Positions 9,889-49,768 of a stretch of DNA of 64,000 bases are shown here, piece after piece (position 1 is the stretch's first letter; each line of letters begins with the position of its first letter). Both the position numbers and the translations under genes were made by a program. The notes beneath the pieces were generated by a model. That model made no database searches. It was not told the DNA's origin and was given only the letters and a program-made list of their open reading frames with translations. This stretch comes from a virus: IMG/VR virus record IMGVR_UViG_3300045988_150584; one strand, written 5' to 3'.

Positions 9889-10135
9889 TGAAAATTTGAA
9901 CTTAGTTCCAGCAATTCGCGCGATTGAAGAACAAATTAGCGAGCTGAATAGTGAATATGTAAAGAAGATTACACCATACAAAGAGAGTTTAGCTAAGCTC
10001 AAAGAAATCAATACAGCTTGCGAAACATGCTGTGGAACAGGAAAAGTGTTTAGGCGTTCATGCGCAGAAGACGAGGGAGACTACTATACATGTCCAGACT
10101 GTAAGGGTTCTGGCAAATGTGCAGATCATGTTTAA
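9881..10135 (+). CDS. Small protein with DnaJ-type CxxCxGxG zinc-finger repeats
   Basis: In-frame ATG at 9881 overlaps the upstream stop. Motifs CETCCGTGKV and CPDCKGSGKC. Confidence 0.5.
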   Translation: MPNENLNLVPAIRAIEEQISELNSEYVKKITPYKESLAKLKEINTACETCCGTGKVFRRSCAEDEGDYYTCPDCKGSGKCADHV

Positions 10136-10505
10136 GCTTATAATCGCTGGCGGGCGTGATTTTAACAACTATGACGGCATGTCGAAATGTCTTGACCGTC
10201 TGCTGAAAAACATCAACGATAATATTGAAATTGTTTGTGGTATGGCTCGCGGCGCAGATCGTCTTGGAGAACGCTATGCAAAAGAGCATGGCTATAAAGT
10301 AATCTACATGCCTGCCGATTGGGATTTGTATGGAAAATCTGCTGGCTTCAAACGCAATGTACAGATGGCTGAGTATGCAGATGCGCTCGTTGCTTTTTGG
10401 GATGGAGTATCGTCCGGTACGAAACATATGATAGAAACAGCGCAAAAGATGGGACTTGATGTGCGCGTAAAAAAGTACCTAATGGTAAAGAGGGATTCCA
10501 CATGA
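10128..10505 (+). CDS. SLOG-fold / DUF2493-like nucleotide-binding protein
   Basis: MFKLIIAGGRDF..IVCGMARGADRLGE..VAFWDGVSSGTKHMI matches the DUF2493 (SLOG) pattern. Confidence 0.6.
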   Translation: MFKLIIAGGRDFNNYDGMSKCLDRLLKNINDNIEIVCGMARGADRLGERYAKEHGYKVIYMPADWDLYGKSAGFKRNVQMAEYADALVAFWDGVSSGTKHMIETAQKMGLDVRVKKYLMVKRDST

Positions 10506-10657
10506 ATGAGCTTAAAAAGTATGAAGAATTGAAAAACAAGCTACATGATGCGGTAAATGAATTATGTGTATTATGCGGAAAGTATCAGTTTGAGCATATT
10601 GGTATGTGTGATGGGTGTAGATGGAAGCAGGAAAAACACGCATGGACGAAAGAGTAA
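10502..10657 (+). CDS. Small Cys-containing protein (51 aa, hypothetical)
   Basis: Hand-translated ATGA-coupled ORF below the 60-aa track cut-off: MNELKKYEELKNKLHDAVNELCVLCGKYQFEHIGMCDGCRWKQEKHAWTKE. Confidence 0.35.
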   Translation: MNELKKYEELKNKLHDAVNELCVLCGKYQFEHIGMCDGCRWKQEKHAWTKE

Positions 10658-10769
10658 ATAATAGTATCTGCCCGTTTGTCCGCTCTGGCGAATGTGATGT
10701 TCCTCCGTGTAATTCGTGCTTTTTATACCATTTGAGTTGTCATGAAGATAAAAAGGAGCAGCGAGAAAA

Positions 10770-11654
10770 TTGAAACGACCAGAAATCACAAAGCAATTAT
10801 CAGAGCTGTTAGAAAAACACATTGATCCGCATAACGATCCGCGTGTGTATTGGGCAAAAGAAGTGACATTTGATTATGCAACAAGCAATACCGTAAGAGT
10901 TGACTACATGCTTTTCAAACCAATAAACAACTCCGTTTCTGGCATTGAAAAAGGAGATTTCTCTTGCTATGAGATTAAATCCTCCGTCGATGATTTTCAC
11001 TCGAAAAATGGACATAACTTTATTGGCGATAAGAACTACTATGTCATGCCAGAGAGCGTGTTTGAGAATGTGAAAAATGAAATCCCTTATTTTGTTGGTG
11101 TCCTATGCCCGCGTCAGGTATTTAGCGGTAGCTCTACATATCAACTTGTCGTTGTGAAAAACGCAAAGAAACACGACCGTACAAAATCAGTCTCAGAAAT
11201 GCTGTTAATGATGTGGCGCTCATCCAGACGCGAAATTGTTAAAGCAAGGCGTATTAAGAAAGTGGAGGAAGTAATGGAAACTGATGTTTTAATCAAAAAT
11301 CTCCGTGAAGCTGCAAATAAATGGGACAGAGATAACCCAAATCCACCGACATTCTCGACGGTTTATTCTGCTGCTCTGCGTGATGCAGCAAGCAGATTAG
11401 AAGAGTATGAGAAGATTATTTCGGAGACGCAGAAGCCGAACAATGTACTTAGCATCGAAGATCTTCAGCGTATGAACGGGCAACCAGTGTGGATTGAAGA
11501 TATTCATGAGTGGGCTATCGTTTCTGTTGATGAGAATGGTTATTATGAGGGTATCCCATTTGCACAAGGACATTGTTTTAACTGGAATATTAAAGATCGA
11601 AACCTGAAATGTTATCGGAAACCGCCAGTCAGTAACACTCAGGAGGATAACTAA
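10770..11654 (+). CDS. MmcB-like PD-(D/E)XK nuclease-domain protein
   Basis: RVDYMLF...CYEIKSSVDDFHS...KNYYVMP resembles the MmcB-type D..E-x-K core. TTG start 9 nt after AAGGAG. Confidence 0.5.
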   Translation: MKRPEITKQLSELLEKHIDPHNDPRVYWAKEVTFDYATSNTVRVDYMLFKPINNSVSGIEKGDFSCYEIKSSVDDFHSKNGHNFIGDKNYYVMPESVFENVKNEIPYFVGVLCPRQVFSGSSTYQLVVVKNAKKHDRTKSVSEMLLMMWRSSRREIVKARRIKKVEEVMETDVLIKNLREAANKWDRDNPNPPTFSTVYSAALRDAASRLEEYEKIISETQKPNNVLSIEDLQRMNGQPVWIEDIHEWAIVSVDENGYYEGIPFAQGHCFNWNIKDRNLKCYRKPPVSNTQEDN

Positions 11655-12076
11655 TGGAGCGGCTGACCAATAAACGCGAGGCAGACGCTCAGCGTAAGGA
11701 TTACGAAAATCGTATTAAAAACGGTTATCCTCGCAACATTCCGGAAGAGCGTTTTCTTCGCCTCGCGGCATACGAAGATACAAAGATGCCTCCAGAACTC
11801 GTTGAAAAGGTGGCCAAGTTTGCAATGTGGGTAAATGAAAGTGGGATTGACCGACTACGGCATCTTGCAGAAGCAGACGAAGAAAATCGTATTATTATCT
11901 TGCCCTCAAAAGAATACCAAAAGAAATTACAAGAAGCATTTAACATCGTTGTAAAGTATGGTTTTTGTAGCGATTGCGTACAGAAATACGATGGAACACT
12001 TTGTCACCAATGTGATTGTTTTCAGAATGGCGTTGATGTGATTAGACAAGCTTTATTTGGATCGGAGAATTTGTAA
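11654..12076 (+). CDS. Hypothetical protein
   Basis: Tightly packed co-oriented ORF with ATG directly after the upstream stop. Confidence 0.6.
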   Translation: MERLTNKREADAQRKDYENRIKNGYPRNIPEERFLRLAAYEDTKMPPELVEKVAKFAMWVNESGIDRLRHLAEADEENRIIILPSKEYQKKLQEAFNIVVKYGFCSDCVQKYDGTLCHQCDCFQNGVDVIRQALFGSENL

Positions 12077-12379
12077 ATGCCGGAATATATTTCAAAGGAT
12101 GCGGCATTTCAGAGGTTGCTTTGTAAAGAAAGCGAATTCCACCATTGGAATGACTATAATCTTGCTCAATATATCATTGCGCAGATTGTTCCAGAAGATG
12201 TAGTTCCAGCCACGCATATACAAAAACTTGGTAATATTGTTCAAACAATAAAAAATGGGCGGGCTTGTAGAACCTTTTCGTGCTGCGGAACTGACTGTAC
12301 AGAAATGACATCATGGATGTGGCCTAAATACTGTCCTTGGTGTGGCGCTAAATTGAATGGTGGTGTCTGTAATGCCTAA
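12077..12379 (+). CDS. Hypothetical protein with C-terminal zinc-ribbon (CPWCGAKL)
   Basis: ATG follows the upstream TAA directly. Cys pairs are present. Confidence 0.55.
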   Translation: MPEYISKDAAFQRLLCKESEFHHWNDYNLAQYIIAQIVPEDVVPATHIQKLGNIVQTIKNGRACRTFSCCGTDCTEMTSWMWPKYCPWCGAKLNGGVCNA

Positions 12380-12654: not shown

Positions 12655-12969
12655 ATGGCGATGAAAATTGGATATATTCAAGAGATTGATCTTCAACTTA
12701 ACCCGCAGTGTAAAGAACGATTCCGTTTCAGAGAAGCATCGTTTACTCGAAGAATTTCAAGTCGTGGAGACCGTGTGTATTCCAAAATGCTTGCACTTCC
12801 AGTTGACTACGAAGAAATCGTAGACAATGCAAACATTATGAAGAAAAATAGCAAAATCATTTTAGTACGAGAACCATTCTTACTCGATGACGAACTGCGC
12901 AAGAAAGTTACAGAATGGGTTGAGTGGGCAAACACAGCAGACCCACACGAATACGATCCGTTTGCATAA
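12655..12969 (+). CDS. Hypothetical protein
   Basis: ATG at 12655 sits just after the upstream TAA. Confidence 0.5.
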   Translation: MAMKIGYIQEIDLQLNPQCKERFRFREASFTRRISSRGDRVYSKMLALPVDYEEIVDNANIMKKNSKIILVREPFLLDDELRKKVTEWVEWANTADPHEYDPFA

Positions 12970-20680: not shown

Positions 20681-21040
20681 TTAAATAGCTGGACTTTCCC
20701 AGCTCGATCCGTCATCATTTACTGCGTCAGACATTGCCATTGCAAATTTGATGCCGTCTCCATTTCCACCAACATTTTCAGCTTCGCTTTTATGAACGAT
20801 TTTACTTAGCACAATGCTACAAGCTGTACCAATCGGCGTAAACACCACCGTCCAGCACATCAGAGCGCCAGTATATCCGGTTCTAATGCTTTCGTTGGCA
20901 AGATAAAAGCCGCCAGCCAAGCCAGCAGCCAAAAACAAAAGTATGTAAATCGCAAGCCGATTGCTAAAGCCAAGCGAAACAAGATGCTGGATAAGACCTT
21001 TCTTTTTCTTGCGACGCTTCACTTTACGCTTAACAGCCAT
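20681..21040 (-). CDS. Small membrane protein (holin/antiholin-like, at least 2 TM)
   Basis: TAATG coupling to the endolysin gene. Basic N-terminus, then two or more hydrophobic helices. Confidence 0.55.
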   Translation of the reverse strand: MAVKRKVKRRKKKKGLIQHLVSLGFSNRLAIYILLFLAAGLAGGFYLANESIRTGYTGALMCWTVVFTPIGTACSIVLSKIVHKSEAENVGGNGDGIKFAMAMSDAVNDDGSSWESPAI

Positions 21041-22380
21041 TACGCTTTACCCATCAATTTTGCAAAACGATAGAATAGCGCTGCGGCCTGCTCTCTCGTA
21101 AGCTGATCTGCCCAAGCATAATTCGGCTCTCCATTTGCATTGTTTCCAGTACCACCAATGAGACCGTTTGCGATTGCCCACTCACGAGCGTCCTTACTCC
21201 AAGTACCACAATCGTTGTCCTGAAGCTCTGCACGATACTCTTTCATCAACTCTTTGAATCTATCCAAAGTCATATCTTCATCCTCCTGTTCTACACTTTC
21301 ACCAACAAGCGACCAATCTGGTCTACCGTACCCACAAATATATGTAGCGGTAAGATTATAGGATTTGGCTCTTACGCATCCACCATTAGGAACAACGCCA
21401 GAAGCGCTTGATGTATTTCCCTCAATCGTATAGACTTTGCCATTTCCAACAGCAATAACAAGTCCGGTGTGATAAGATGTTGCTCCGCCATCGTTAGTGA
21501 AGAAAATCTGATCGCCGGCCTGAGGATTGCTTTTATGGAACTGCCCCTTTTGCTTATAATACTGAACAGAATAGGTACATCCAGCTCCAGCACCGCCATA
21601 TGGCTGACACAGCAGCTTCATAGCAAGATCTACTCCAAATGTCTTGATAAAACACCAGTCAACAAAAACATCACACCAAGCATAGCCGTTCTTTTTGCCA
21701 TTGTAAATGTTCCCGATGTTATCCAAATCACGGGCGTACTTTGTCCAGTTGTTGCTACCGGCATTTGCAGTTTTACTATCAAGCTGGGCATTCGTTGCCT
21801 TTTCCAAATAGCCCTCTTCTGCCTTTGCCGTCGCAATAAGTCTTTCAATCGCAGTCAAACTACCAACTCCTTCCTTTGTCGTACTCTGCGCAAACTTGTC
21901 ATAATAAGCTTGTCCATAGCTTGCACGTTTGTTTTGAACGGCTTCGCTTTGGTTAGCAGGTCGTTCATACTGTAATAGCACAGCGTTAGATGCTTCAAAA
22001 ACGGACGTCGCAGACTGCAGCGTTTTCCACACAGTAGGATATCCGGAAAGCTCCTTGCAGAGAAATTCAAGCTGCATGTCCAAATCACCGATTGATTTTC
22101 CGACGCTTCGTGCGTAATTCAATAGGTTTTGCTTTCGACTCCAATATGTCCATTGGGCAAGCCCATAACCGGCAGCATCCTTGACAAAGTTTGTATAGCT
22201 GCCATTATCAACGGCTTGCGTATAGCTTTGATCTGTAAAATTAAGCTTCTTCTCATATGAGTTTTGAAGATTGATAGGGCTTAATCCAGACTCGGCGTAT
22301 AGATTTCCCATCAGCCCAGATACACCAAAATCAGTAAAACCTTTTGACTTTAAGAATTTCCAGATTTTTTCTTCATTCAT
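21040..22380 (-). CDS. Multidomain endolysin (phage lysozyme-like N-domain + CHAP + SLH-like C-terminal motif)
   Basis: N-terminus GVSGLMGNLYAESGL..GYGLAQWTYWSR is phage tail lysozyme-like. The centre has CHAP-like Cys/His motifs (YAWCDVFV ... YHTGLVIAV). The C-terminus W..DAREWAIANGLIGG...LTREQAAALFYRF is SLH-like. Confidence 0.8.
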   Translation of the reverse strand: MNEEKIWKFLKSKGFTDFGVSGLMGNLYAESGLSPINLQNSYEKKLNFTDQSYTQAVDNGSYTNFVKDAAGYGLAQWTYWSRKQNLLNYARSVGKSIGDLDMQLEFLCKELSGYPTVWKTLQSATSVFEASNAVLLQYERPANQSEAVQNKRASYGQAYYDKFAQSTTKEGVGSLTAIERLIATAKAEEGYLEKATNAQLDSKTANAGSNNWTKYARDLDNIGNIYNGKKNGYAWCDVFVDWCFIKTFGVDLAMKLLCQPYGGAGAGCTYSVQYYKQKGQFHKSNPQAGDQIFFTNDGGATSYHTGLVIAVGNGKVYTIEGNTSSASGVVPNGGCVRAKSYNLTATYICGYGRPDWSLVGESVEQEDEDMTLDRFKELMKEYRAELQDNDCGTWSKDAREWAIANGLIGGTGNNANGEPNYAWADQLTREQAAALFYRFAKLMGKA

Positions 22381-22394
22381 TTATATCACCGCCC

Positions 22395-22820
22395 TTAAAC
22401 CAGCATATAATGCGGCTTCTCTTCTCCGAAAAACCAATATCGAAAATAATCGTCAAGTATAATAGCCACGACAGACAACCCAACCCAAGCAAAGAAAAAC
22501 GGCAAGCAAATTTGCCCCATCAAATTAAGCGGTAGATTTGAATAGTCCCACACATTTAATCCAAGCCAAACATTCACAATTAAGCCTGTAATAAATTCAA
22601 GAGTGGTTACAAGTACACCGCCAATTAAAGCCTGCCATACAATACCAAGTTCCCACGGAAACAGTTCGTTGATTAAACCGATAGAAACAAAACACATACC
22701 GCCAAGAATAAACATGGAAATATGACTATGACCGCGCCAAAGTAGTTCGATCAAAACATAGGCAGCACCGCCAATAACAAACAGTGCTGCCAGTTTGAAA
22801 AATGTCTTCAGATTACGCAT
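22395..22820 (-). CDS. Polytopic membrane protein (PF06541/DUF1113-like)
   Basis: About four TM helices. The ELLWRGHSHISMFILGG motif resembles the 'ABC-transporter type IV' family common in Clostridia. Confidence 0.5.
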   Translation of the reverse strand: MRNLKTFFKLAALFVIGGAAYVLIELLWRGHSHISMFILGGMCFVSIGLINELFPWELGIVWQALIGGVLVTTLEFITGLIVNVWLGLNVWDYSNLPLNLMGQICLPFFFAWVGLSVVAIILDDYFRYWFFGEEKPHYMLV

Positions 22821-23687: not shown

Positions 23688-24089
23688 TTATTTGCCCTCC
23701 TTTACTCCAATCAGATTTGCAATATACCGTAGTACATCAATATCGGCATTATAAAAATCATGATTCCAAAGCCATGTATCGTCGCACTCTTGGCGACGGT
23801 ATCTTTGACAAATGGAATCGTCTGCTACCTTTTCACAACGCTCATCGTGCTTCGTATCTTTTTTCTCAAGCGCCGTCTGGATACTGCTTGTGAGTTTACC
23901 TCTGAGCATTCCATTACCATCGTCATTTCTGGCAAAAAACTGGTGTGCATTTCTGGAAAATACACTGCAAATTTGCTTGCCATTGTAATAAATAACATTA
24001 CCGACAGACTCGCATTCGCTCATAGCTGGAATATTCACACTATCGCAAACAGAAGTGTGTCTAAATCTTCTATGTACAATGTACTGCAT
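23688..24089 (-). CDS. Hypothetical Cys-rich protein overlapping the 3' end of the RT gene
   Basis: GGAGAG RBS lies inside the RT gene. There is a 20-nt overlap with the RT stop (24070). Confidence 0.55.
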   Translation of the reverse strand: MQYIVHRRFRHTSVCDSVNIPAMSECESVGNVIYYNGKQICSVFSRNAHQFFARNDDGNGMLRGKLTSSIQTALEKKDTKHDERCEKVADDSICQRYRRQECDDTWLWNHDFYNADIDVLRYIANLIGVKEGK

Positions 24090-25702: not shown

Positions 25703-26158
25703 TTAGCGGTCTTTGTCGCTCTTTAATGTATTTGTCAAAAGACCGTTTTCGGAATCAATCAGCTCACCAAGCGATTGCGCCATATTTTCAAGAATTTCTT
25801 TTGCTCTTGCTGGCTTAACTGGATTTCCATTTGATGTTGTAAAGCATCCCTCCGGATTCAGCATCATAATGTCATAGCAATGAGATAGCTCAACATCCAA
25901 AGCCATCAATGCAGCTCTTGATTCTAAAAGGTGCTGCTTGCGCAACTCCTTTCTGGTATGATCCGATGGAAAGATACTGTTTGCCTTTTCTGCATTCACG
26001 AGAACTTCTGACGCAAGATGTGATACATCGTTAGCCATCAGTCTTGAAAATCTTGCAGAAAGTCGAGATAAGAAGTTAATCGTTTCCACATAAATCTTGT
26101 TTGCAGTATTCACAAACTCAGCTTTGCTTTCAGATCTATGTGCTTTTAATACCGACAT
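25703..26158 (-). CDS. avd: Accessory variability determinant (Avd-like helical bundle protein)
   Basis: 151-aa, predicted helical ORF between the target gene and TR. AAGGAG RBS. Position and size are typical of Avd. Confidence 0.65.
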   Translation of the reverse strand: MSVLKAHRSESKAEFVNTANKIYVETINFLSRLSARFSRLMANDVSHLASEVLVNAEKANSIFPSDHTRKELRKQHLLESRAALMALDVELSHCYDIMMLNPEGCFTTSNGNPVKPARAKEILENMAQSLGELIDSENGLLTNTLKSDKDR

Positions 26159-26198
26159 AAATAGAACTCCTTTTTATATTTTGAAAAACAAAAAGAAA

Positions 26199-26220
26199 CC
26201 CGCCCTCTTTCGAGGGCAGG
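26199..26220 (-). other. GC-rich hairpin with GAAA loop about 30 nt 3' of VR (DGR target-recognition hairpin and/or terminator)
   Basis: The - strand reads CCTGCCCTC-GAAA-GAGGGCGGG followed by TTTCTTTTTGTTTTT. Confidence 0.6.
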
Positions 26221-26237
26221 ATTCTCTTGATATGGGA

Positions 26238-28325
26238 TTAGACGCGGAAAGCGGGGGCGAGGCCATAGGAAAACCAGGCGTCGGTGAAGCCCGCGTCGCC
26301 GTTCGAGTACACACTGCAGAAGTAGAGGCCGCTGCTGTAGTACGGAGAACGCTCCCACCAATTCGCAGTGGAAGAAGTAGAGTTATGGCGATACTTGATC
26401 TTAGAATTACCAGCCTTATAGTAATCGTACTGTTTCTGATAATTCTTTTCTGCACTATTTGCATAAGAGCGAGAGCCAAAGATCTCAAACTCCGCCAACA
26501 AAGGCAGATAATCTACAGACTTTGTAACATACGAAGCAGTATCAGAACCGCCAGCAGTATTGTCCGTATAAATCGTCATCGGTTTCATAACCGCACGAAG
26601 CGCGGATGGCAATGCAGCCATTAGCGTATTTGCAACAGGGCTTGTAGCACAAGTAGATGTTGCATCATTACCCTTACGACCAGAAGAAACCGCGCTACCA
26701 TATCCGCTTGGAGCAACATTTGTACTGCCAAGAACATCATAACGTAGGTCGCATCCAGCCCATCCACCATAGTTATAGTTACCCCAATGGTTCATGTTGA
26801 AATACTTTGAACCATTCGTCGAATAACTATTGTAGTTGCCATCGGTAAGACACAAATCACTTCCGCCAGAAGCCGCAGACTTGAATCCACCAAAGTCAAT
26901 GGTGTTCGATGCGCCATTGTGAGCAAATCCAAGAATATATACATAGTAAGTAGCATTCACTGCCAATGTACCGACTGTACCATTGACTAAAACGCCCTTA
27001 CGATCACCGACGTCGAAATAGTCATCACCTTTACCAGCAGCGGAAATCTGAGCAATTTGTTCCCATGTGTATGTGTCAAGCGCATTACCCATTGGGGGCA
27101 TAAACGACGCGATAACATCAACTGTCTTGTTAGAAGGGGCTGTATAGTTCGTACCAGCACCGCAAGAAACAGTGATTGTAGTGTTACCTGTGGTCTGATT
27201 GACATGAGAAACCGTAGCGGTATTTCCGCTTAGACTAACGGTCGCAATAGATGTATTGTTAGATTTAACCGACAATGTTCCATCGTGATTACCGCCAATC
27301 GTGAATGTGGTAGTCAGATTATCTTTATCCACTGTAACGCTTGTCTTGCTTACAGTCAGCGTACCAGTTGCCTTACCGATCTTCCACGAAACAGTCTTTG
27401 CTGTAGTCGTACCGTCAGACCAGCAATAATCCGACTTTGGCGTAAATGTGGCATTGTATGTGCCGGCATTTGTTCCGGATGTCGTTCCGCCAATCGTCAT
27501 CTTGGATGTGTCATAGTTACTCCAAGACGGAGACTGAGAGTTTTTATTATATGTCAGCGTACCACTCTGGCTTGGAACAGTCGAAATCGTCAAACGATTT
27601 GGAACTCCGGTTATTCTATTACTTGTGTTTACATTAACTGCACCATCCGTAGAGATGGGGAAGAATGAAATGTAATAGGTTGTTCCGTTAGTTAGGCCGG
27701 TAACAGTAAGTGCAGAATTCGCATACTGATTGCGAGTGGTCACATTTAAGCTATAAGCCGCAGCGCTATCATCTGGAGAAGTTGCATAGCTTCCAGCCTT
27801 AACGACAATCTTTGTGCTTGCCCATGTCGCAAGTGTCACGCCGTCCGAAACTACGGTCGCGGCTGGATCAGTCCACTTGATTGCAAGCTTTCCATTACCA
27901 GCAGCAACAGCGCTTGCGCCAGAAATATTACCAACATTTACAGCAGCAGGAGTAACATTGAATTCGTCATCCGTACTGTCCGTATATGTACCAGTGGTAG
28001 TGTATGGGAACAGCTTATAGTAATACTTCACGCCGTTAGTCAATCCACTATCACAGAAATAGGCAGATTTATATTGATCTCGCGTCTTGCTGTCGAGAAC
28101 GATTGTGCCATCTCTACGACTTGTCGGAGCAGAACCAGCCTTACGAACAAGGAGTGTTCCTCCCCATGCGGCAAGAGTAGAGCCAGCAACGACCATATCA
28201 TCAGGATCAGTCCATTTTACATAGACCTTCCCAGCCGCCGCGAGCGTTGTAATTCCCGTAACAGCGGCAAGGGCAAGTCCGCCGCCAGATCCGCCGCCAG
28301 TTGGGAAATTAGAAATAATAGGCAT
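26238..28325 (-). CDS. DGR target protein: tail-fibre/adhesin-like with two FN3-like repeats, Ig-like repeats and a C-terminal variable lectin-like domain
   Basis: GGAGG RBS. Repeated module GK..(V/I)KWTDP...GLTNG..YY..FP. The C-terminus ANWWERSPYY + VR resembles CLec/FGE-type DGR targets. Confidence 0.85.
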   Translation of the reverse strand: MPIISNFPTGGGSGGGLALAAVTGITTLAAAGKVYVKWTDPDDMVVAGSTLAAWGGTLLVRKAGSAPTSRRDGTIVLDSKTRDQYKSAYFCDSGLTNGVKYYYKLFPYTTTGTYTDSTDDEFNVTPAAVNVGNISGASAVAAGNGKLAIKWTDPAATVVSDGVTLATWASTKIVVKAGSYATSPDDSAAAYSLNVTTRNQYANSALTVTGLTNGTTYYISFFPISTDGAVNVNTSNRITGVPNRLTISTVPSQSGTLTYNKNSQSPSWSNYDTSKMTIGGTTSGTNAGTYNATFTPKSDYCWSDGTTTAKTVSWKIGKATGTLTVSKTSVTVDKDNLTTTFTIGGNHDGTLSVKSNNTSIATVSLSGNTATVSHVNQTTGNTTITVSCGAGTNYTAPSNKTVDVIASFMPPMGNALDTYTWEQIAQISAAGKGDDYFDVGDRKGVLVNGTVGTLAVNATYYVYILGFAHNGASNTIDFGGFKSAASGGSDLCLTDGNYNSYSTNGSKYFNMNHWGNYNYGGWAGCDLRYDVLGSTNVAPSGYGSAVSSGRKGNDATSTCATSPVANTLMAALPSALRAVMKPMTIYTDNTAGGSDTASYVTKSVDYLPLLAEFEIFGSRSYANSAEKNYQKQYDYYKAGNSKIKYRHNSTSSTANWWERSPYYSSGLYFCSVYSNGDAGFTDAWFSYGLAPAFRV
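26247..26372 (-). repeat. DGR variable repeat (VR)
   Basis: Covers 42 codons ending 2 codons before the stop. It differs from TR at 21 hand-counted positions, all at TR adenines. Confidence 0.9.
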
Positions 28326-28338
28326 ATTGATTCCTCCA

Positions 28339-28743
28339 TTAACCTAAGAGAATAATTACAACGGGAATGTCTTGTTCTGGCAGTTCACCATCAGCTACGA
28401 TTTGTAGCTTTCCGTTTTCCTGACCGGTGATGGAGAGCAACGCTTCTCGCGCAATTTCCCGTTGCTCGGCAGTCGCACTATGCGCCACCGAAATAGTTCC
28501 GTTTTGCGCAGCACCAAGCCCCTCAATAGAGAGTTCTTGTGTGAAAGGAGCATCTACGCCTACCCATGCGGAAACCAGCAATGTTGCCGTAGCTGAAGTG
28601 CTTTTGTCTGCTTTCTCGCCAAGAGCGGTGTCAATTTTCACCATATTGGATTGCCCAGAACCATTCATTTTCTGTCTCCATGTTTTGAACTTAGCAGACG
28701 CATCATCTTCCAAATAAAGCCCGTAGTTAGTTGTTTCGCTCAT
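28339..28743 (-). CDS. Tail-fibre-cluster protein sharing a C-terminal module with 28762-29304
   Basis: Shared module W.G....Q.LSI.GLGA.QNG.IS...ADG..P..DIP.VIILL. Confidence 0.6.
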   Translation of the reverse strand: MSETTNYGLYLEDDASAKFKTWRQKMNGSGQSNMVKIDTALGEKADKSTSATATLLVSAWVGVDAPFTQELSIEGLGAAQNGTISVAHSATAEQREIAREALLSITGQENGKLQIVADGELPEQDIPVVIILLG

Positions 28744-28761: not shown

Positions 28762-29304
28762 TTAACTCAGCAAAATAATGACGGTTGGAATATCGCAGGT
28801 GGGTACAGTGCCATCCGCAGCGATTGTGATAGTTCCATCGGCCTGAGCGCAGACATAAAGCTCTCCATTCTTTACTGCCTCCATCGCTTGTGCTGAAATG
28901 TCTTGTGTAATGCTGATAATTCCATTCTGATTTGCACCTAATCCATTGATCGAAATACTCTGTTTGCCGTTCGCCCATCCATCTGCGGCCAGAGTTGCAT
29001 AAACAGCGTCGCTTGCGCCGCTTCCAGATGTGAGGTCAACCCACGCATCATTCAAATAGCGCCAGAAGTGAGCCGTATCTTTTACAAAGTAAAATTTGTC
29101 CAATGGAGCAAGAATTGCTGTTCTTTCCGCGTCCGTCTCCAAATCAATAATGTCAGTAAGATGCTTACGAACATTATCTTTGGTGTCATAGTAGACATCG
29201 GAAGTATCAGTGCAGATCAGATACCGTCCAGGTGTAATCGGAATCAAGGCAGTATTTTCAGACTTGCTTTTTACCGTTTCAAAAACCCGAAAATTGTATC
29301 CCAC
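28762..29304 (-). CDS. Tail-fibre-cluster protein (YLxCTDT N-motif plus the shared C-terminal module)
   Basis: The GTG at 29304 is 7 nt after AAGGAGG, whereas the ORF-track start 29310 is too close to the RBS. Confidence 0.6.
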   Translation of the reverse strand: MGYNFRVFETVKSKSENTALIPITPGRYLICTDTSDVYYDTKDNVRKHLTDIIDLETDAERTAILAPLDKFYFVKDTAHFWRYLNDAWVDLTSGSGASDAVYATLAADGWANGKQSISINGLGANQNGIISITQDISAQAMEAVKNGELYVCAQADGTITIAADGTVPTCDIPTVIILLS

Positions 29305-29333
29305 TTGCACACCTCCTTAAATTGATAAAGAAA

Positions 29334-29402: not shown

Positions 29403-30659
29403 TTAAAAAGTACCGACAGTGACAGCTTCCTCAACAGCCTTGACACGAGTATCCATGTCGCTGTTCAAGCCGTTTGCATAGCCCTTAGCATCAGCAAGAG
29501 CCTTCTTAACAGAACCCTCGGTCTTCTCGTCGCCCTGCAAAGTAGTAAGCTTACCCTCAGCAGCAGTCATACGACCGTCCATAGCGGTGTTCAGTTCATC
29601 CGCATAGTCCTTTGCGTTCTGCTCTGCGGCATCCCACTTTGCTTTGTCGCCAACTGCAATCTTGTCAAGCTCTGCCTTGTTAGCATGAGTGTGAATCTTA
29701 TTGATCTCGGTCTGCAGCTCAGCAGTCAGCTTAGCCTTGGTAATAGTACCATCAGTGATAGTAGCAGTTACCTTATGAGTGGACTCATCAATGTCGATAA
29801 CGACCATATCGCCAGCTGCAGAACCAGAGGTGACATACTCAATCAGAGAATCAACAGGGATGTAGATCTCGCTGTTCTCAGCATTGGCAAGCACCAGCTT
29901 CAGATAAGTACCATTAGCCTGACCTTCCGGATTGGTGACAACAGTACCGCTCTGAACAACCATATCCTTAGGAATATTGATTGCAGCGCCGACATTTGCA
30001 CCATTCTTAGTCAGATGATAGGTTGCAGCAAAACCTTCAGCAGCAGACTCATCCTTAACGACAGTATAGGTGTCTGCATTTGGGATAATGACCTTCAGAC
30101 CTTCTTGACCTTCGGTCTCGTCAAGCTCCAAAGCATTGCCAGCAGCGGGAGAAAGCTTCACCTTAACAGTAGGCTTAGTGGCAGTACCGCCGATGTCAAC
30201 ACTGTTGTCGCCAGCACCAACAGAATCAACCTTACCGTTGATCTTGTTTTTTAGAGTCTCTTCAAGCTCGTTCTCAGACACATTGTCCTTGTGCGCCAGC
30301 TCACCAAGTTCGCTACCAGTAATACCAGCAACATAATCCTTGACTGCCTTTGCAGTAGGCACTTCGCTGTCACTTGCAGAAGCACCGATAGTTGTAGCAA
30401 CGGTCTTTGTTACAATAGCGGTGAAAACAGACTTCCATGTAGTACCATTCCACACATCACCAGCGCCAGAAACAGTGTCAATGTACAACACACCCTGGGC
30501 AGGAGCGGTAGGCTTAGTACCATCGTAGAAGCGCACAGCCTCAGTGTAAAGATTTGCGCCGAAGAACAGCTCACGGGTATCCGTGCAGAGATAGAAGCTG
30601 TTTGCATTACGCTCCGCAGGCAAGTTAGCTTTCAAGCCCTTATAAATTAGATTTGCCAT
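29403..30659 (-). CDS. Tail fibre protein (paralogue A)
   Basis: N-terminus MANLIYKGLKANLP..FYLCTDTRELFFGANLYTEAVRFY..KP..PAQGVLY is shared with 31048-32145. The remainder is Ala/Thr/Gly-rich. Confidence 0.7.
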   Translation of the reverse strand: MANLIYKGLKANLPAERNANSFYLCTDTRELFFGANLYTEAVRFYDGTKPTAPAQGVLYIDTVSGAGDVWNGTTWKSVFTAIVTKTVATTIGASASDSEVPTAKAVKDYVAGITGSELGELAHKDNVSENELEETLKNKINGKVDSVGAGDNSVDIGGTATKPTVKVKLSPAAGNALELDETEGQEGLKVIIPNADTYTVVKDESAAEGFAATYHLTKNGANVGAAINIPKDMVVQSGTVVTNPEGQANGTYLKLVLANAENSEIYIPVDSLIEYVTSGSAAGDMVVIDIDESTHKVTATITDGTITKAKLTAELQTEINKIHTHANKAELDKIAVGDKAKWDAAEQNAKDYADELNTAMDGRMTAAEGKLTTLQGDEKTEGSVKKALADAKGYANGLNSDMDTRVKAVEEAVTVGTF

Positions 30660-31047: not shown

Positions 31048-32145
31048 TCAAATTGTGACCTTATAAGTGTTTGCGGTATCGTTGGCATTAGCCATATCCA
31101 TCACATACACCTTATAATCAATACCGTCATATCCGTTAGCACCCTCAACAGAAACAACGGACTGTGTAAACGCAGTTTTAACCTCTGCGTTCATTCCGTT
31201 GACGTCCTGAACAGAGTTGACATCACGCAGCGAAGCGGGATATGCAAACACGACACGGATATCTCCAACGGGAATAGAGATGGTAAAACTGTTTCCAGCA
31301 GCAAGTGCCTTATTACTCTTTCCGGACAAAGCGCGGACAAGCGCAGAGTTTACCACACCATCTTTAGCAGTCAAAGAACCGTAGAAACTGTTACGATAGC
31401 CAGAAATCTTGCTCTTCGTAGCCGTCTTCTTACCTGCCTTGATCTGCCCAGCAGCATAATCCTTTTCCAATGCAGTCTTCGGCATAGCACCGTCTGCATA
31501 AGTCGCCTCGGCAGTGATGGAATATGCTGTGTCATCGCCAACGGTAATCTCATCGAATGTTCCACTTGCAGTTGTTTTCTCACCGCCATCTGTATTTGTC
31601 ACTTTCCATGCGGAAGCAACGATGCCAGTTGCCGGCCCGAATTCATAAGAACCAGCATTTAGCACAGCAGAGTAATCTGGAGATACCTTTGTACCAGCTT
31701 CATATGCCTTGATCTTAGCCGCAGTTAATGTAACACTCGGCTGAGTTACAGTCGGGTTTTGATCTTCTGCGAAAGCGTCATTCAAAAGCTCTGTCAAAGT
31801 CTTATCTTTTGCTGGAACTGTGACCTTGCCTCCGACCGGTGTATACTTACCAAACTGATATGTAAACACCAGATCTTCTGTGAACACAATATCGTCTGTT
31901 GACGATCCACCGAATAACTGTACCCATGCACTACCAGTCCAAATCTCACCAACCTTGGTGTCCGTATTAACATACAGAACGCCAGTGGCAGGAGTTGCCG
32001 GTTTTTCACCAGTGTATGTACGAACTGCCTCGGTAAAGAGATCTGCACCAAAGTAAATCTCTCTTGTGTCCGTACAAAGATAAAACGCATTTTCACGGAC
32101 TTCTGGCAAATTTGCTTTCAAGCCCGTATACACAAAATGAGCCAT
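31048..32145 (-). CDS. Tail fibre protein (paralogue B)
   Basis: N-terminus MAHFVYTGLKANLP..FYLCTDTREIYFGADLFTEAVRTY..KP..PATGVLY. Confidence 0.7.
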   Translation of the reverse strand: MAHFVYTGLKANLPEVRENAFYLCTDTREIYFGADLFTEAVRTYTGEKPATPATGVLYVNTDTKVGEIWTGSAWVQLFGGSSTDDIVFTEDLVFTYQFGKYTPVGGKVTVPAKDKTLTELLNDAFAEDQNPTVTQPSVTLTAAKIKAYEAGTKVSPDYSAVLNAGSYEFGPATGIVASAWKVTNTDGGEKTTASGTFDEITVGDDTAYSITAEATYADGAMPKTALEKDYAAGQIKAGKKTATKSKISGYRNSFYGSLTAKDGVVNSALVRALSGKSNKALAAGNSFTISIPVGDIRVVFAYPASLRDVNSVQDVNGMNAEVKTAFTQSVVSVEGANGYDGIDYKVYVMDMANANDTANTYKVTI

Positions 32146-32219: not shown

Positions 32220-32588
32220 TTAAAAACTGCCAATCATATCTGCAATGACCGCAGAAGATGTGGCAACACTGTCTTCAACAATATCATCCTTACCACCGTC
32301 AGATGGAACGCCGTATGTCTTAATCAGTCCGGCGCTGATCCATGTGAGTTTGACATTATCTCCGTCATTTTTAACATAGAAAAGATCATCTTTTAATGTC
32401 TCGCGCTCATCATCATCTGGGGTAATCTTCCATGTTCCGTCGATATTGTAAACGCCAGTAGATAAGCTTGAAATAACAATACCAGAGCCGCTGATGTTTG
32501 TTACCGGCTTGTTGGAAAGCTTGTCGTAGTTAGAAACTCCGCCTGTTCCGCCGCCAGAACCTCCACTCCAAAAAGGAATATCACTCAT
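32220..32588 (-). CDS. Tail-fibre-like small protein with Gly-rich N-terminus and YDKLSNKP motif
   Basis: AGGAGG RBS. The N-terminus IPFWSGGSGGGTGG resembles that of the DGR target (SNFPTGGGSGGG). Confidence 0.55.
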   Translation of the reverse strand: MSDIPFWSGGSGGGTGGVSNYDKLSNKPVTNISGSGIVISSLSTGVYNIDGTWKITPDDDERETLKDDLFYVKNDGDNVKLTWISAGLIKTYGVPSDGGKDDIVEDSVATSSAVIADMIGSF

Positions 32589-34654: not shown

Positions 34655-35461
34655 TTAACCTCCAACATTTACGGGAAACTCACATTGGATTTCCAACATA
34701 CAATTCCCAACCACTTCAAGCAAATTGTCACCACAAACAAGCTTGAAGAATTCAAAATTGAAATATGGATATAGGTTCAAATCCATATTATTTGTAATTA
34801 CACCATTTTCATTATCCACTTCAATCTCCAAGAAGTAGTCTTGCGGAAGATCGCTCAATGCAAAAAACCTATCGTTATCAGAATGATTGATGATTTTGAT
34901 AGCGTTACTTCCGTTCAGTGTGATTTTTAGCTTTGGCTGATATCCACCACGATAGCTACCGAGATTGCGCAAAATAATGTTAGTGTTGCCGCTGCAGTTA
35001 TAGCTATATGTCACCGGATACTGATAGGCAAATGGGGAATCGCATCGAACAGTGCATGAAAAAGCAATCGGTAAATTTCCGATTTCCACCATCTGCAAAT
35101 CTTCAATCAAGCACCGATATCGAACCTGCTCCATATCGGCCTGCTCAATTTCCAACCACTTATAACCATCGACAGGAGACAACCATGCACTGATTGCCTC
35201 CCGATCCCAGGCATCAAAAAAGCCGTTTGTTTTCACAAACGACTTATCAGCTCCAAATACCATTTTGAATGTCAATGGCTCATTTTGTGTGATACCATAA
35301 AACAGCGGCTTATATCGACCAGAAATACGGTCTTCCGAAATTTCTGCCGGCGTAGGAAAACTACCATTACCAGGAGAAACACCATTGACTTCGTAAAGCC
35401 TTAGCCCGTATTCCGTGCAAGGGATACCATCAAAAATAAAATAGTCACCCCAAAAAGCCAT
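34655..35461 (-). CDS. Distal-tail-protein-like (Sipho_tail family-like)
   Basis: N-terminus F.FDGIPCTEYGLRLYEV resembles the Dit-family start. GGAGG RBS. Confidence 0.45.
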   Translation of the reverse strand: MAFWGDYFIFDGIPCTEYGLRLYEVNGVSPGNGSFPTPAEISEDRISGRYKPLFYGITQNEPLTFKMVFGADKSFVKTNGFFDAWDREAISAWLSPVDGYKWLEIEQADMEQVRYRCLIEDLQMVEIGNLPIAFSCTVRCDSPFAYQYPVTYSYNCSGNTNIILRNLGSYRGGYQPKLKITLNGSNAIKIINHSDNDRFFALSDLPQDYFLEIEVDNENGVITNNMDLNLYPYFNFEFFKLVCGDNLLEVVGNCMLEIQCEFPVNVGG

Positions 35462-49207: not shown

Positions 49208-49768
49208 TTATTTTTCATGTTTCTCAATTTTGATTTGGTCATCCTGATTTAACCGAATATCGTAGTTGTTAATTACAAAATGCCCAATCATAATTGCATC
49301 GGCCAGATTATCATTGTCCGTGTCAATTCCGTACATTTCTTTCGCTGCTTGAATGGAAAGAATTTTTGATTCTTTCTTTCCAGACGCTTCCAAGGCTTTA
49401 ATTTTATCTTTGATTTCCTTACTGCTCCGTCCTCTTGCTTTACAGTAGTTTTGCCACTGAGTTGGAGCAATGAAATCGTACAAGTATTCATTCTTCTCAA
49501 AGAGATTTATGAGGACTCCTTGAAGTTGCGCAAGCTTTTTGAAAGACTGTACATTTACACGAAGCTGAATGTCTTCGATAAATACAGCCGAAATGTTATA
49601 GGTCTTGATAATCGTATCGACCAAACTCTCAATAGCAAGAATCGCTCTTGCGTATGTATAATCCTTATTTCCAAAAGAAAAAGTCCCGTATGTTTCGAGC
49701 TTTTTCGTTTCATAGTCAAAAACAGCCCAAGCACCGTTTCTGGCCTGGTCTATGGATAAAATTTTCAT
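49208..49768 (-). CDS. RuvC-like Holliday junction resolvase
   Basis: MKILSIDQARNGAWAVFD ... AVFIEDIQ fits the RuvC/RNase H-fold D...E pattern. Confidence 0.55.
   Translation of the reverse strand: MKILSIDQARNGAWAVFDYETKKLETYGTFSFGNKDYTYARAILAIESLVDTIIKTYNISAVFIEDIQLRVNVQSFKKLAQLQGVLINLFEKNEYLYDFIAPTQWQNYCKARGRSSKEIKDKIKALEASGKKESKILSIQAAKEMYGIDTDNDNLADAIMIGHFVINNYDIRLNQDDQIKIEKHEK

Follow-up and report, generated by a model that had tools for sequence, protein, structure and literature searches.

Does the 695-amino acid (aa) open reading frame (ORF) at positions 26238–28325 of the viral sequence IMGVR_UViG_3300045988_150584 encode a protein that is rewritten by a diversity-generating retroelement (DGR), and if so, which part of the protein is varied and where does the product act? 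A preliminary description of this 64,000-nucleotide stretch, referred to throughout as the window, had proposed from the sequence that the ORF is a DGR target and a multi-domain adhesin. Our analysis identified a complete DGR cassette with this ORF as its target, evidence of ongoing mutagenic homing in natural populations, and a variable region located at the end of a C-terminal globular domain of the DUF6273 type (the head). The probability that an active DGR is re-randomising the C-terminal β-hairpins of this head was judged to be about 0.8, and less confidence is placed in the site at which the protein is attached. The target is most likely an accessory adhesin or receptor-binding protein, attached to the virion by its N-terminus, of a temperate long-tailed siphovirus of gut Oscillospiraceae.

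Repeat pair, cassette and natural variation

The ORF list and translation showed that the target gene opens with ATG and fills the interval exactly as had been described; its strand, which the preliminary description left unstated, is the minus strand. Homologues of its product fall into more than 4310 clusters. A repeat search identified a 126-nt direct repeat that pairs the 3' end of the target with a second copy 763 nt downstream in the direction of transcription (Table 1). When both copies are read on the minus strand, 21 of the 126 bases differ. Each of the 21 mismatches affects the first or second base of a target codon and has an adenine in the downstream copy, which the target replaces by T in 10 cases, by G in 8 and by C in 3. 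The probability that 21 random mismatches would all hit the 38 adenines among 126 bases is ~7e-14 (hypergeometric). As the mismatches are confined to the adenines of the downstream copy, this copy is the template repeat (TR) and the copy within the ORF is the variable repeat (VR). Twenty-three TR codons contain a mutable adenine, 15 of them being AAY, allowing ~2e22 possible protein sequences with no stop codon reachable by adenine mutagenesis. A scan of the window for a second VR or a further TR-like copy found none elsewhere.

These results uphold the proposal that the ORF is a DGR target, and all of the sequence motifs quoted in support of it are present in the window. Two details of that proposal were altered by the alignment. 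The count of 21 variable positions was correct but refers to nucleotides, which alter 17 codons, and the ANWWERSPYY motif is indeed found at the C-terminus but sits within the TR-matching repeat instead of upstream of the VR. Residue N655 of this motif differs between relatives.

On the minus strand, the cassette order is target, GC-rich hairpin, 151-aa accessory gene, TR and reverse transcriptase (RT), and the cassette is complete. Both VR and TR end in GGCCTCGCCCCCG, beyond which the two repeats diverge, a pattern expected of the initiation of mutagenic homing (IMH) site in the target and its IMH* counterpart in the template. The hairpin just past the target stop codon may act as a terminator, as a DGR homing hairpin, or as both; the homing role is presumed here from the BPP-1 system. 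The RT shares 25% identity with BPP-1 Brt (E 2e-12), where its LGVEPSQ aligned to IGSLTSQ and its YMDD to YMDD, and [ILV]GxxxSQ is the signature of DGR reverse transcriptases. This is a real DGR, and its target is an ordinary, well-formed example of a target kind that has been described before. A conserved 133-aa ORF (phrog_29409, E 6.5e-38; 23688–24089, minus strand) has 20 nt in common with the 3' end of the RT gene, and orf31 of phage Roos likewise overlaps the 3' end of its RT gene.

The 151-aa accessory gene occupies the position of avd, whose product is a four-helix bundle, and is kept beside related targets at every locus of sufficient length. Its product is 64% identical to gp70 of the Faecalibacterium phage FP_Taranis (NC_047914; Taranis hereafter), and in Taranis, in Roos and in several prophages of Oscillospiraceae a family member with 59–100% identity was observed beside the DUF6273 target. 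Searches with the protein, both singly and as a profile of eight orthologues, gave no match in Pfam, NCBIfam, the Protein Data Bank (PDB) or to bAvd. Cornuault et al. found no Avd homologue in Taranis either (PMC5883640). Judged from sequence comparison, the accessory protein could be a very divergent Avd or belong to a separate accessory family.

Comparison with naturally occurring relatives demonstrated that variation is concentrated in the VR. The two closest public homologues, P0001 and P0002, are each 97% identical to the target, where the former differs at 18 residues (15 in the VR) and the latter at 24 residues (16 in the VR). A metagenomic contig (L003) aligned to the window at 96.6–99.3% identity over 19 kb with unchanged gene order, and the two target genes differ at 24 nucleotides. 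The 126-nt VR accounts for 20 of these differences, and 19 of the 20 coincide with TR adenines. The one left over is a C>T substitution that is found in the TR of L003 too, indicating that sequence moved between TR and VR after the phages diverged. Entropy values pointed the same way across greater distances, as Shannon entropy among 75 head-family representatives was 3.24 bits at TR-adenine codons, against 1.25 for the remaining VR positions and 1.50 for the domain outside the VR, and homologous positions are diversified throughout the head family. On the basis of population comparison, not experiment, the DGR is active and mutagenic homing is ongoing. The C>T substitution lies in the GC-rich end of the L003 TR, changing GCCCCC to GCTCCC (TR at L003 positions 12720–12845; VR inside 10001–12088), and constitutes a natural marker of TR–VR sequence transfer that reaches the IMH-proximal stretch.

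Domain architecture of the target protein

The multi-domain architecture that had been proposed, consisting of a Gly-rich N-terminus, two FN3-like domains, immunoglobulin (Ig)-like modules and a C-terminal variable domain, was recovered in full. The C-terminal domain matched Pfam DUF6273 (PF19789) at 34.3 bits against a cut-off of 23.5 over aa 568–694, with the VR at the C-terminal end of the domain, and the same model also matched 65 of 75 head relatives. The conserved unit exceeds the Pfam span and comprises ~280 aa. It was found in 2843 clusters at 50% identity with E below 1e-3, including 675 with E below 1e-30, and nearly always forms the extreme C-terminus of proteins 314–2005 aa long.

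AlphaFold2 (AF2) modelling of the full-length protein from a 29-sequence alignment gave a poor head, with a predicted local distance difference test (pLDDT) score below 50 in the VR. The head alone (aa 405–695), modelled with 75 diverse representatives, reached a pLDDT of 97.7 and a predicted template modelling (pTM) score of 0.94. In this model the VR (aa 652–693) forms the last five β-strands, and the variable residues are carried on an invariant scaffold (WW.RSP..FC.V..G.A...A..S.GLAP.F).

The preliminary description had likened this domain to the C-type lectin or FGE-like fold of known DGR variable proteins and had suggested structure prediction as a check. The prediction gave a confident model, for which Foldseek found a single significant match in the PDB, entry 9qa6 (298 columns, E 5.2e-6, template modelling (TM) score 0.44), from the IgA peptidase of Thomasclavelia ramosa. 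The N-terminal domain of this peptidase (residues 31–322) is a DUF6273 domain without a clear function assigned (PMC12402451). Many phage DUF6273 proteins were matched in BFVD, the best of which is named 'tail-collar fiber protein' (TM 0.85), and C-type lectins (MBP-C, the Lcl C-terminal domain, SP-A, CD23) together with the pilin 4eps appeared at E ~2–6 over 25–48 columns only. FGE-sulfatase and DUF1566 gave no Pfam match at E up to 10, sequence searches of the PDB returned no relative of either the target alone or the head profile, and NCBIfam searches with the target, with the accessory protein and with adjacent genes gave no match. A remote, local lectin-like substructure in the predicted head would be compatible with this result, though not independently established by it. 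DUF6273 has been described as a C-lec-like DGR-variable domain in previous studies (PMC10743442, PMC11792537, bioRxiv 10.1101/2024.10.15.618418).

Residues 22–410 form four β-domains in the full-length AF2 model with pLDDT above 90. The top Foldseek matches of this stalk were tandem FN3 arrays such as those of LAR and fibronectin (E 1e-10). The first two domains are 40% identical to each other (BLASTP E 6e-22), which together with the fold match bears out the two FN3-like copies noted previously. None of the Pfam FN3, Big_2 and He_PIG models scored above threshold on the stalk, so the FN3 and Ig assignments rest on the predicted model. The Thr/Ser-rich Ig-like repeats of the preliminary description are Ig-like as stated but are not repeats, as they correspond to two different β-sandwich modules, a small Ig-like module and a Big_2-like domain; PF02368 is a precomputed assignment for Taranis-type homologues of the target. 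The small module has the consensus VPSQSG.LTY...TFTP...W.DG...K.V.W.I. The window protein has a single copy of it, and the close homologues P0011, P0013, P0015 and P0033 have two to three or more in tandem; stalk length therefore varies with the number of modules.

Residues 1–21, starting MPIISNFPTGGGSGGG, are disordered in the AF2 model. The Gly-rich sequence SNFPTGGGSGGG is found at this N-terminus and FWSGGSGGGTGG at the N-terminus of a 122-aa ORF (Table 1), and among the 248 six-frame ORFs of the window that reach 60 aa, these 2 alone have such an N-terminal Gly run. The target family begins MPIISNFP.G.G.GGG, an N-terminus that does not vary between close homologues. MPIISNFP is found again on relatives that are otherwise dissimilar in sequence, some of them with tail-fibre repeat motifs, and the target homologue in Taranis (gp68) begins MAWGPFYAGGGGGSSGG, which is Gly-rich. 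Members of the 122-aa family begin M[SA]D[ILM][PS][FW][FW], after which comes a Gly run whose length varies. BLASTP comparison of the 122-aa protein with the target and with Taranis gp68 gave nothing significant beyond the Gly run, and a homologous N-terminal motif common to the target and the 122-aa protein was rejected on this ground. What the two N-termini have in common is a design, a short aromatic peptide and a flexible Gly tether, and not a demonstrable homology.

The preliminary description had taken the Gly-rich N-termini to suggest a common docking site on the virion. This was not established, given the lack of significant similarity between the two proteins and the different peptides that precede the Gly run (MPIISNFP in the target, MSDIPFW in the 122-aa ORF), and a docking site common to both is a matter of speculation. 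A broader proposal would regard the aromatic peptide with poly-Gly (MPIISNFP-GGGSGGG in the target, MSDIPFW-GGSGGG in the 122-aa protein, and similar arrangements on unrelated DUF6273 or fibre proteins) as a plug-in device that docks interchangeable accessory proteins at one virion site, and phrog_30516 as a new, non-Avd family of DGR accessory proteins; taken together, this is a doubtful prospect.

Mechanism, known relatives and alternative readings

Under the mechanism proposed here, the RT would copy TR-containing RNA into cDNA with misincorporation opposite TR adenines, probably assisted by the 151-aa accessory protein. The cDNA would then replace the VR at the 3' end of the target, with homing directed by the GC-rich repeat end and probably by the downstream hairpin too. 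Within the last 42 residues, as many as 23 codons, AAY in 15 cases, would be re-randomised without introduction of a stop. The resulting protein would consist of a flexible stalk (N-terminal peptide, Gly linker, two FN3 and two Ig-like domains) bearing the ~280-aa DUF6273 head, in which the variable residues would be displayed on C-terminal β-hairpins while the scaffold stays invariant. If the VR face binds ligand, as this arrangement suggests, the DGR would keep altering the ligand specificity of the adhesin.

The closest described relative is Taranis gp68, annotated as 'DUF6273 domain-containing protein; DGR target', which is 43% identical to the target over aa 201–695; the targets of Roos and Pioen (PMC11792537) are placed with it here. 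Both proteins have the same Ig-like module, a Big_2 domain, a C-terminal DUF6273 head with the VR at the extreme C-terminus and a Gly-rich N-terminus. Their cassettes likewise agree in having a target, a ~151-aa accessory protein, TR and RT and in being sited between fibre and lysis genes. They differ in that Taranis gp68 has two copies of the small Ig-like module in comparison to one in the window protein, which adds two FN3 domains, and in that Taranis is a myovirus with a baseplate whereas the tail genes of the window phage are of siphovirus type and include one for a 2607-aa tape measure protein.

Comparison with BPP-1 showed similarity in organization but not in sequence. The gene order of fibre, target, accessory gene, TR, RT and lysis genes parallels fibre, mtd, avd, TR, brt and lysis genes in BPP-1, the VR lies at the C-terminus of a globular head, the TR is AAY-rich, the RTs are homologous and one DUF6273-head relative bears an Mtd_N domain. 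In contrast, no sequence or profile similarity to Mtd was detected (HHalign probability 0.5%, on which the head was rejected as an Mtd relative by profile), Mtd was absent among the Foldseek matches, the N-terminal architecture is different and the accessory protein is unrelated to bAvd by sequence. The target works like Mtd, outside the Mtd family. The N-terminal DUF6273 domain of the T. ramosa IgA peptidase is similar in fold and size (~290 aa), but it belongs to a bacterial cell-surface enzyme without DGR diversification and shares 15% sequence identity. The two FN3 domains, the siphovirus background with a long tape measure protein and the Avd-less cassette are variations within the described class.

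Several points weigh against a virion-attached adhesin diversified in this way. Neither canonical C-type lectins nor Mtd or TvpA gave a significant Foldseek match to the head, the latter two being unlisted; the profile comparison with BPP-1 Mtd was negative as given above; and the accessory protein lacks similarity to Avd. No binding function has been assigned to the sole solved DUF6273 domain, that of the IgA peptidase of T. ramosa (PMC12402451), and a 2026 preprint reported a DUF6273 DGR target in a lysogen secretome without phage particles (10.64898/2026.05.08.723808). This last report makes an off-virion role possible, in which lysogens or lysing cells would set the target free as a lectin diversified by the DGR and serving lysogenic conversion or phenotype extension. 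The reported protein was a Mushuvirus DUF6273 target whose DGR was active during lysogeny, and the only solved DUF6273 domain likewise comes from a cell-wall-anchored bacterial enzyme; for the window protein itself such a role is improbable, as its N-terminus shows no signal-peptide features and no basic n-region, residues 22–30 fall within the model of the first FN3 domain (pLDDT ~95) and the gene is co-oriented within a late structural and lysis operon.

Alternatively, the target may, like Hoc and the tentaclins, decorate the capsid or the tube of the tail and tether virions to mucus, host glycans or non-host surfaces without determining the host. Tentaclins and Hoc-like DUF6273 targets (Mushu-type; PMC10743442) share with the window protein a DUF6273 variable domain with variable residues in β-hairpins, Ig or FN3 chains as a flexible stalk, and an origin in phages of gut Clostridia, and this combination of chains with a lectin-like head is the architecture of known decoration-type DGR targets (PMC10743442; PMC5883640 for Mushu and Brigit). 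The stalk of the window protein is indeed long and multi-domain, its gene is found at the very end of the structural module, and the phage possesses a separate and complete set of tail-tip and fibre genes. Tentaclins, however, begin with their lectin-like domain and have as their C-terminal anchor a consensus Ig domain. The window protein lacks the latter and has the reverse domain order, on which membership of the tentaclins was rejected; with head and VR at its C-terminus, any anchor must be N-terminal. The gene also adjoins fibre-like genes instead of head genes, and in relatives this head is joined to N-termini of tail-fibre type and, in a single instance, to Mtd_N. Decoration of this kind is therefore regarded as unlikely, though it deserves consideration. 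Far less credible is that the DGR is a relic, with the TR/VR pattern recording past activity and the protein now a fixed fibre component. Targets do persist without a DGR in some phage lineages (bioRxiv 10.1101/2024.10.15.618418) and nothing specific to this locus favours it, whereas RT, TR, accessory gene and VR are all intact, near-identical genomes differ almost solely at the TR-adenine sites of the VR, and a recent TR mutation has been copied into the VR.

Because this target class has been described since 2018 and structurally analysed since 2023, the N-terminally attached adhesin favoured here leaves current understanding unchanged. The preliminary description overstated its novelty, as homologous targets of gut Clostridia phages were already annotated and discussed in the literature. 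What the locus does provide is a clean DGR, demonstrably active in an Oscillospiraceae phage that is highly prevalent in the gut, a model that covers all ~280 aa of the DUF6273 head with high confidence, and documentation of this head as a widely shuffled module with many different anchors. This is useful for annotation of gut viromes and for the choice of a tractable system for work on non-Mtd variable proteins and on DGRs that lack Avd.

Genome neighbourhood, phage and host

Table 1. Positions of the DGR cassette, the domains of its target and neighbouring genes in the window.
Feature	Position	Strand	Basis
DGR target gene, 695 aa + stop	26238..28325	-	phrog_37900 match, E 7.5e-129
N-terminal peptide MPIISNFP and Gly-rich linker, aa 1–21	28263..28325	-	AF2 pLDDT 36–60, predicted disordered
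FN3-like domain 1, aa 22–125	27951..28262	-	AF2 pLDDT above 90; Foldseek tandem FN3 arrays, E 1e-10
FN3-like domain 2, aa 133–241	27603..27929	-	AF2, Foldseek; DNA repeat at 342-nt spacing
Small β-sandwich Ig-like module, aa 244–319	27369..27596	-	AF2 pLDDT ~90; weak He_PIG match, E 1.3e-3, below cut-off
Big_2-like Ig domain, aa 320–408	27102..27368	-	AF2; weak Big_2 and Big_3_5 matches below cut-off
C-terminal globular DUF6273 domain with VR, aa 415–695	26241..27083	-	PF19789, 34.3 bits; AF2; Foldseek
Variable repeat (VR), codons 652–693	26247..26372	-	Repeat pair; GC-rich end, then IMH-like divergence from TR
GC-rich hairpin, 9-bp stem, GAAA loop, T-run	26194..26225	-	Just past target stop; DNA fold -17.4 kcal/mol, z -3.66
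151-aa accessory gene in Avd position	25703..26158	-	phrog_30516 match
Template repeat (TR), 38 adenines, 15 AAY codons	25484..25609	-	Repeat pair
DGR reverse transcriptase, 393 aa	24070..25251	-	RVT_1, E 1.4e-10
Lysis genes: 141-aa membrane protein and 446-aa endolysin (Phage_lysozyme2 + CHAP)	21040..22820	-	Domain matches
Fibre-like paralogous genes, 134, 182, 418, 90 and 365 aa	28339..32145	-	Upstream of target
122-aa ORF, N-terminus MSDIPFW and Gly run	32220..32588	-	N-terminal design kept in its own family
Tail-tip or fibre protein, 1268 aa	35659..39465	-	Prophage_tail + Peptidase_S74 chaperone domain
Tape measure protein, 2607 aa	39487..47310	-	phrog_4211, E 4.8e-81

The target gene lies between fibre-like and lysis genes, as had been proposed. 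The accompanying statement that at least four other fibre genes are present proved softer, since one is clear (1268 aa, with Peptidase_S74) and the remainder are candidates identified from paralogy and N-terminal anchors in common. Among these, the 418-aa and 365-aa proteins (29403–30659 and 31048–32145, minus strand) have their N-terminal 79 aa in common (58% identity, E 4e-31), and the 134-aa and 182-aa proteins (28339–28743 and 28762–29310, minus strand) have in common a C-terminal domain of ~75 aa (E 5e-19) that ends in IP.VIILL. The anchor of the 418-aa and 365-aa proteins (...NLP...FYLCTDTRE...) is fused elsewhere to DUF6273 heads (P0261 and P0345), and these fusions together with the relative that carries Mtd_N indicate that the head is a module shuffled among fibre-type anchors. 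The 134-aa upstream ORF was rejected as a conserved partner of the target by comparison with Taranis gp67.

Portal and terminase genes are present in the window. The ORFs scanned did not include a sheath gene, which with the 2607-aa tape measure protein supports the earlier assignment to a very long-tailed siphovirus. The tape measure protein is unusually long and, at the usual figure of ~1.5 angstrom of tail length per residue, implies a tail of roughly 390 nm. A Dit-like gene (34655–35461, minus strand; phrog_33, E 1.5e-14) was observed downstream of the large Tal or fibre gene, an unusual order in comparison to the usual tape measure, Dit, Tal. A gene for a RuvC-like Holliday junction resolvase (49208–49768, minus strand) was found inside the structural block, between head and tail genes.

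Downstream of the RT gene are small ORFs, a DUF4376 protein, a membrane protein and a two-domain endolysin. The membrane protein (22395–22820, minus strand), encoded just upstream of the endolysin, matched ABC_trans_CmpB (PF06541, E 1.4e-12) and no named holin family, and by position alone it is a probable holin.

A megablast search with 24 kb of the window gave no DNA-level match in the phage collection. Relatives of the target were found in prophages of Hominicoprocola, Dysosmobacter and uncultured Oscillospiraceae, and one relative of the 122-aa protein is labelled Faecalibacterium sp. The 122-aa protein itself is encoded, at 100% identity, by at least 1000 contigs in public data that reach up to 944 kb in length, indicating that the phage is very prevalent and integrated in bacterial genomes.

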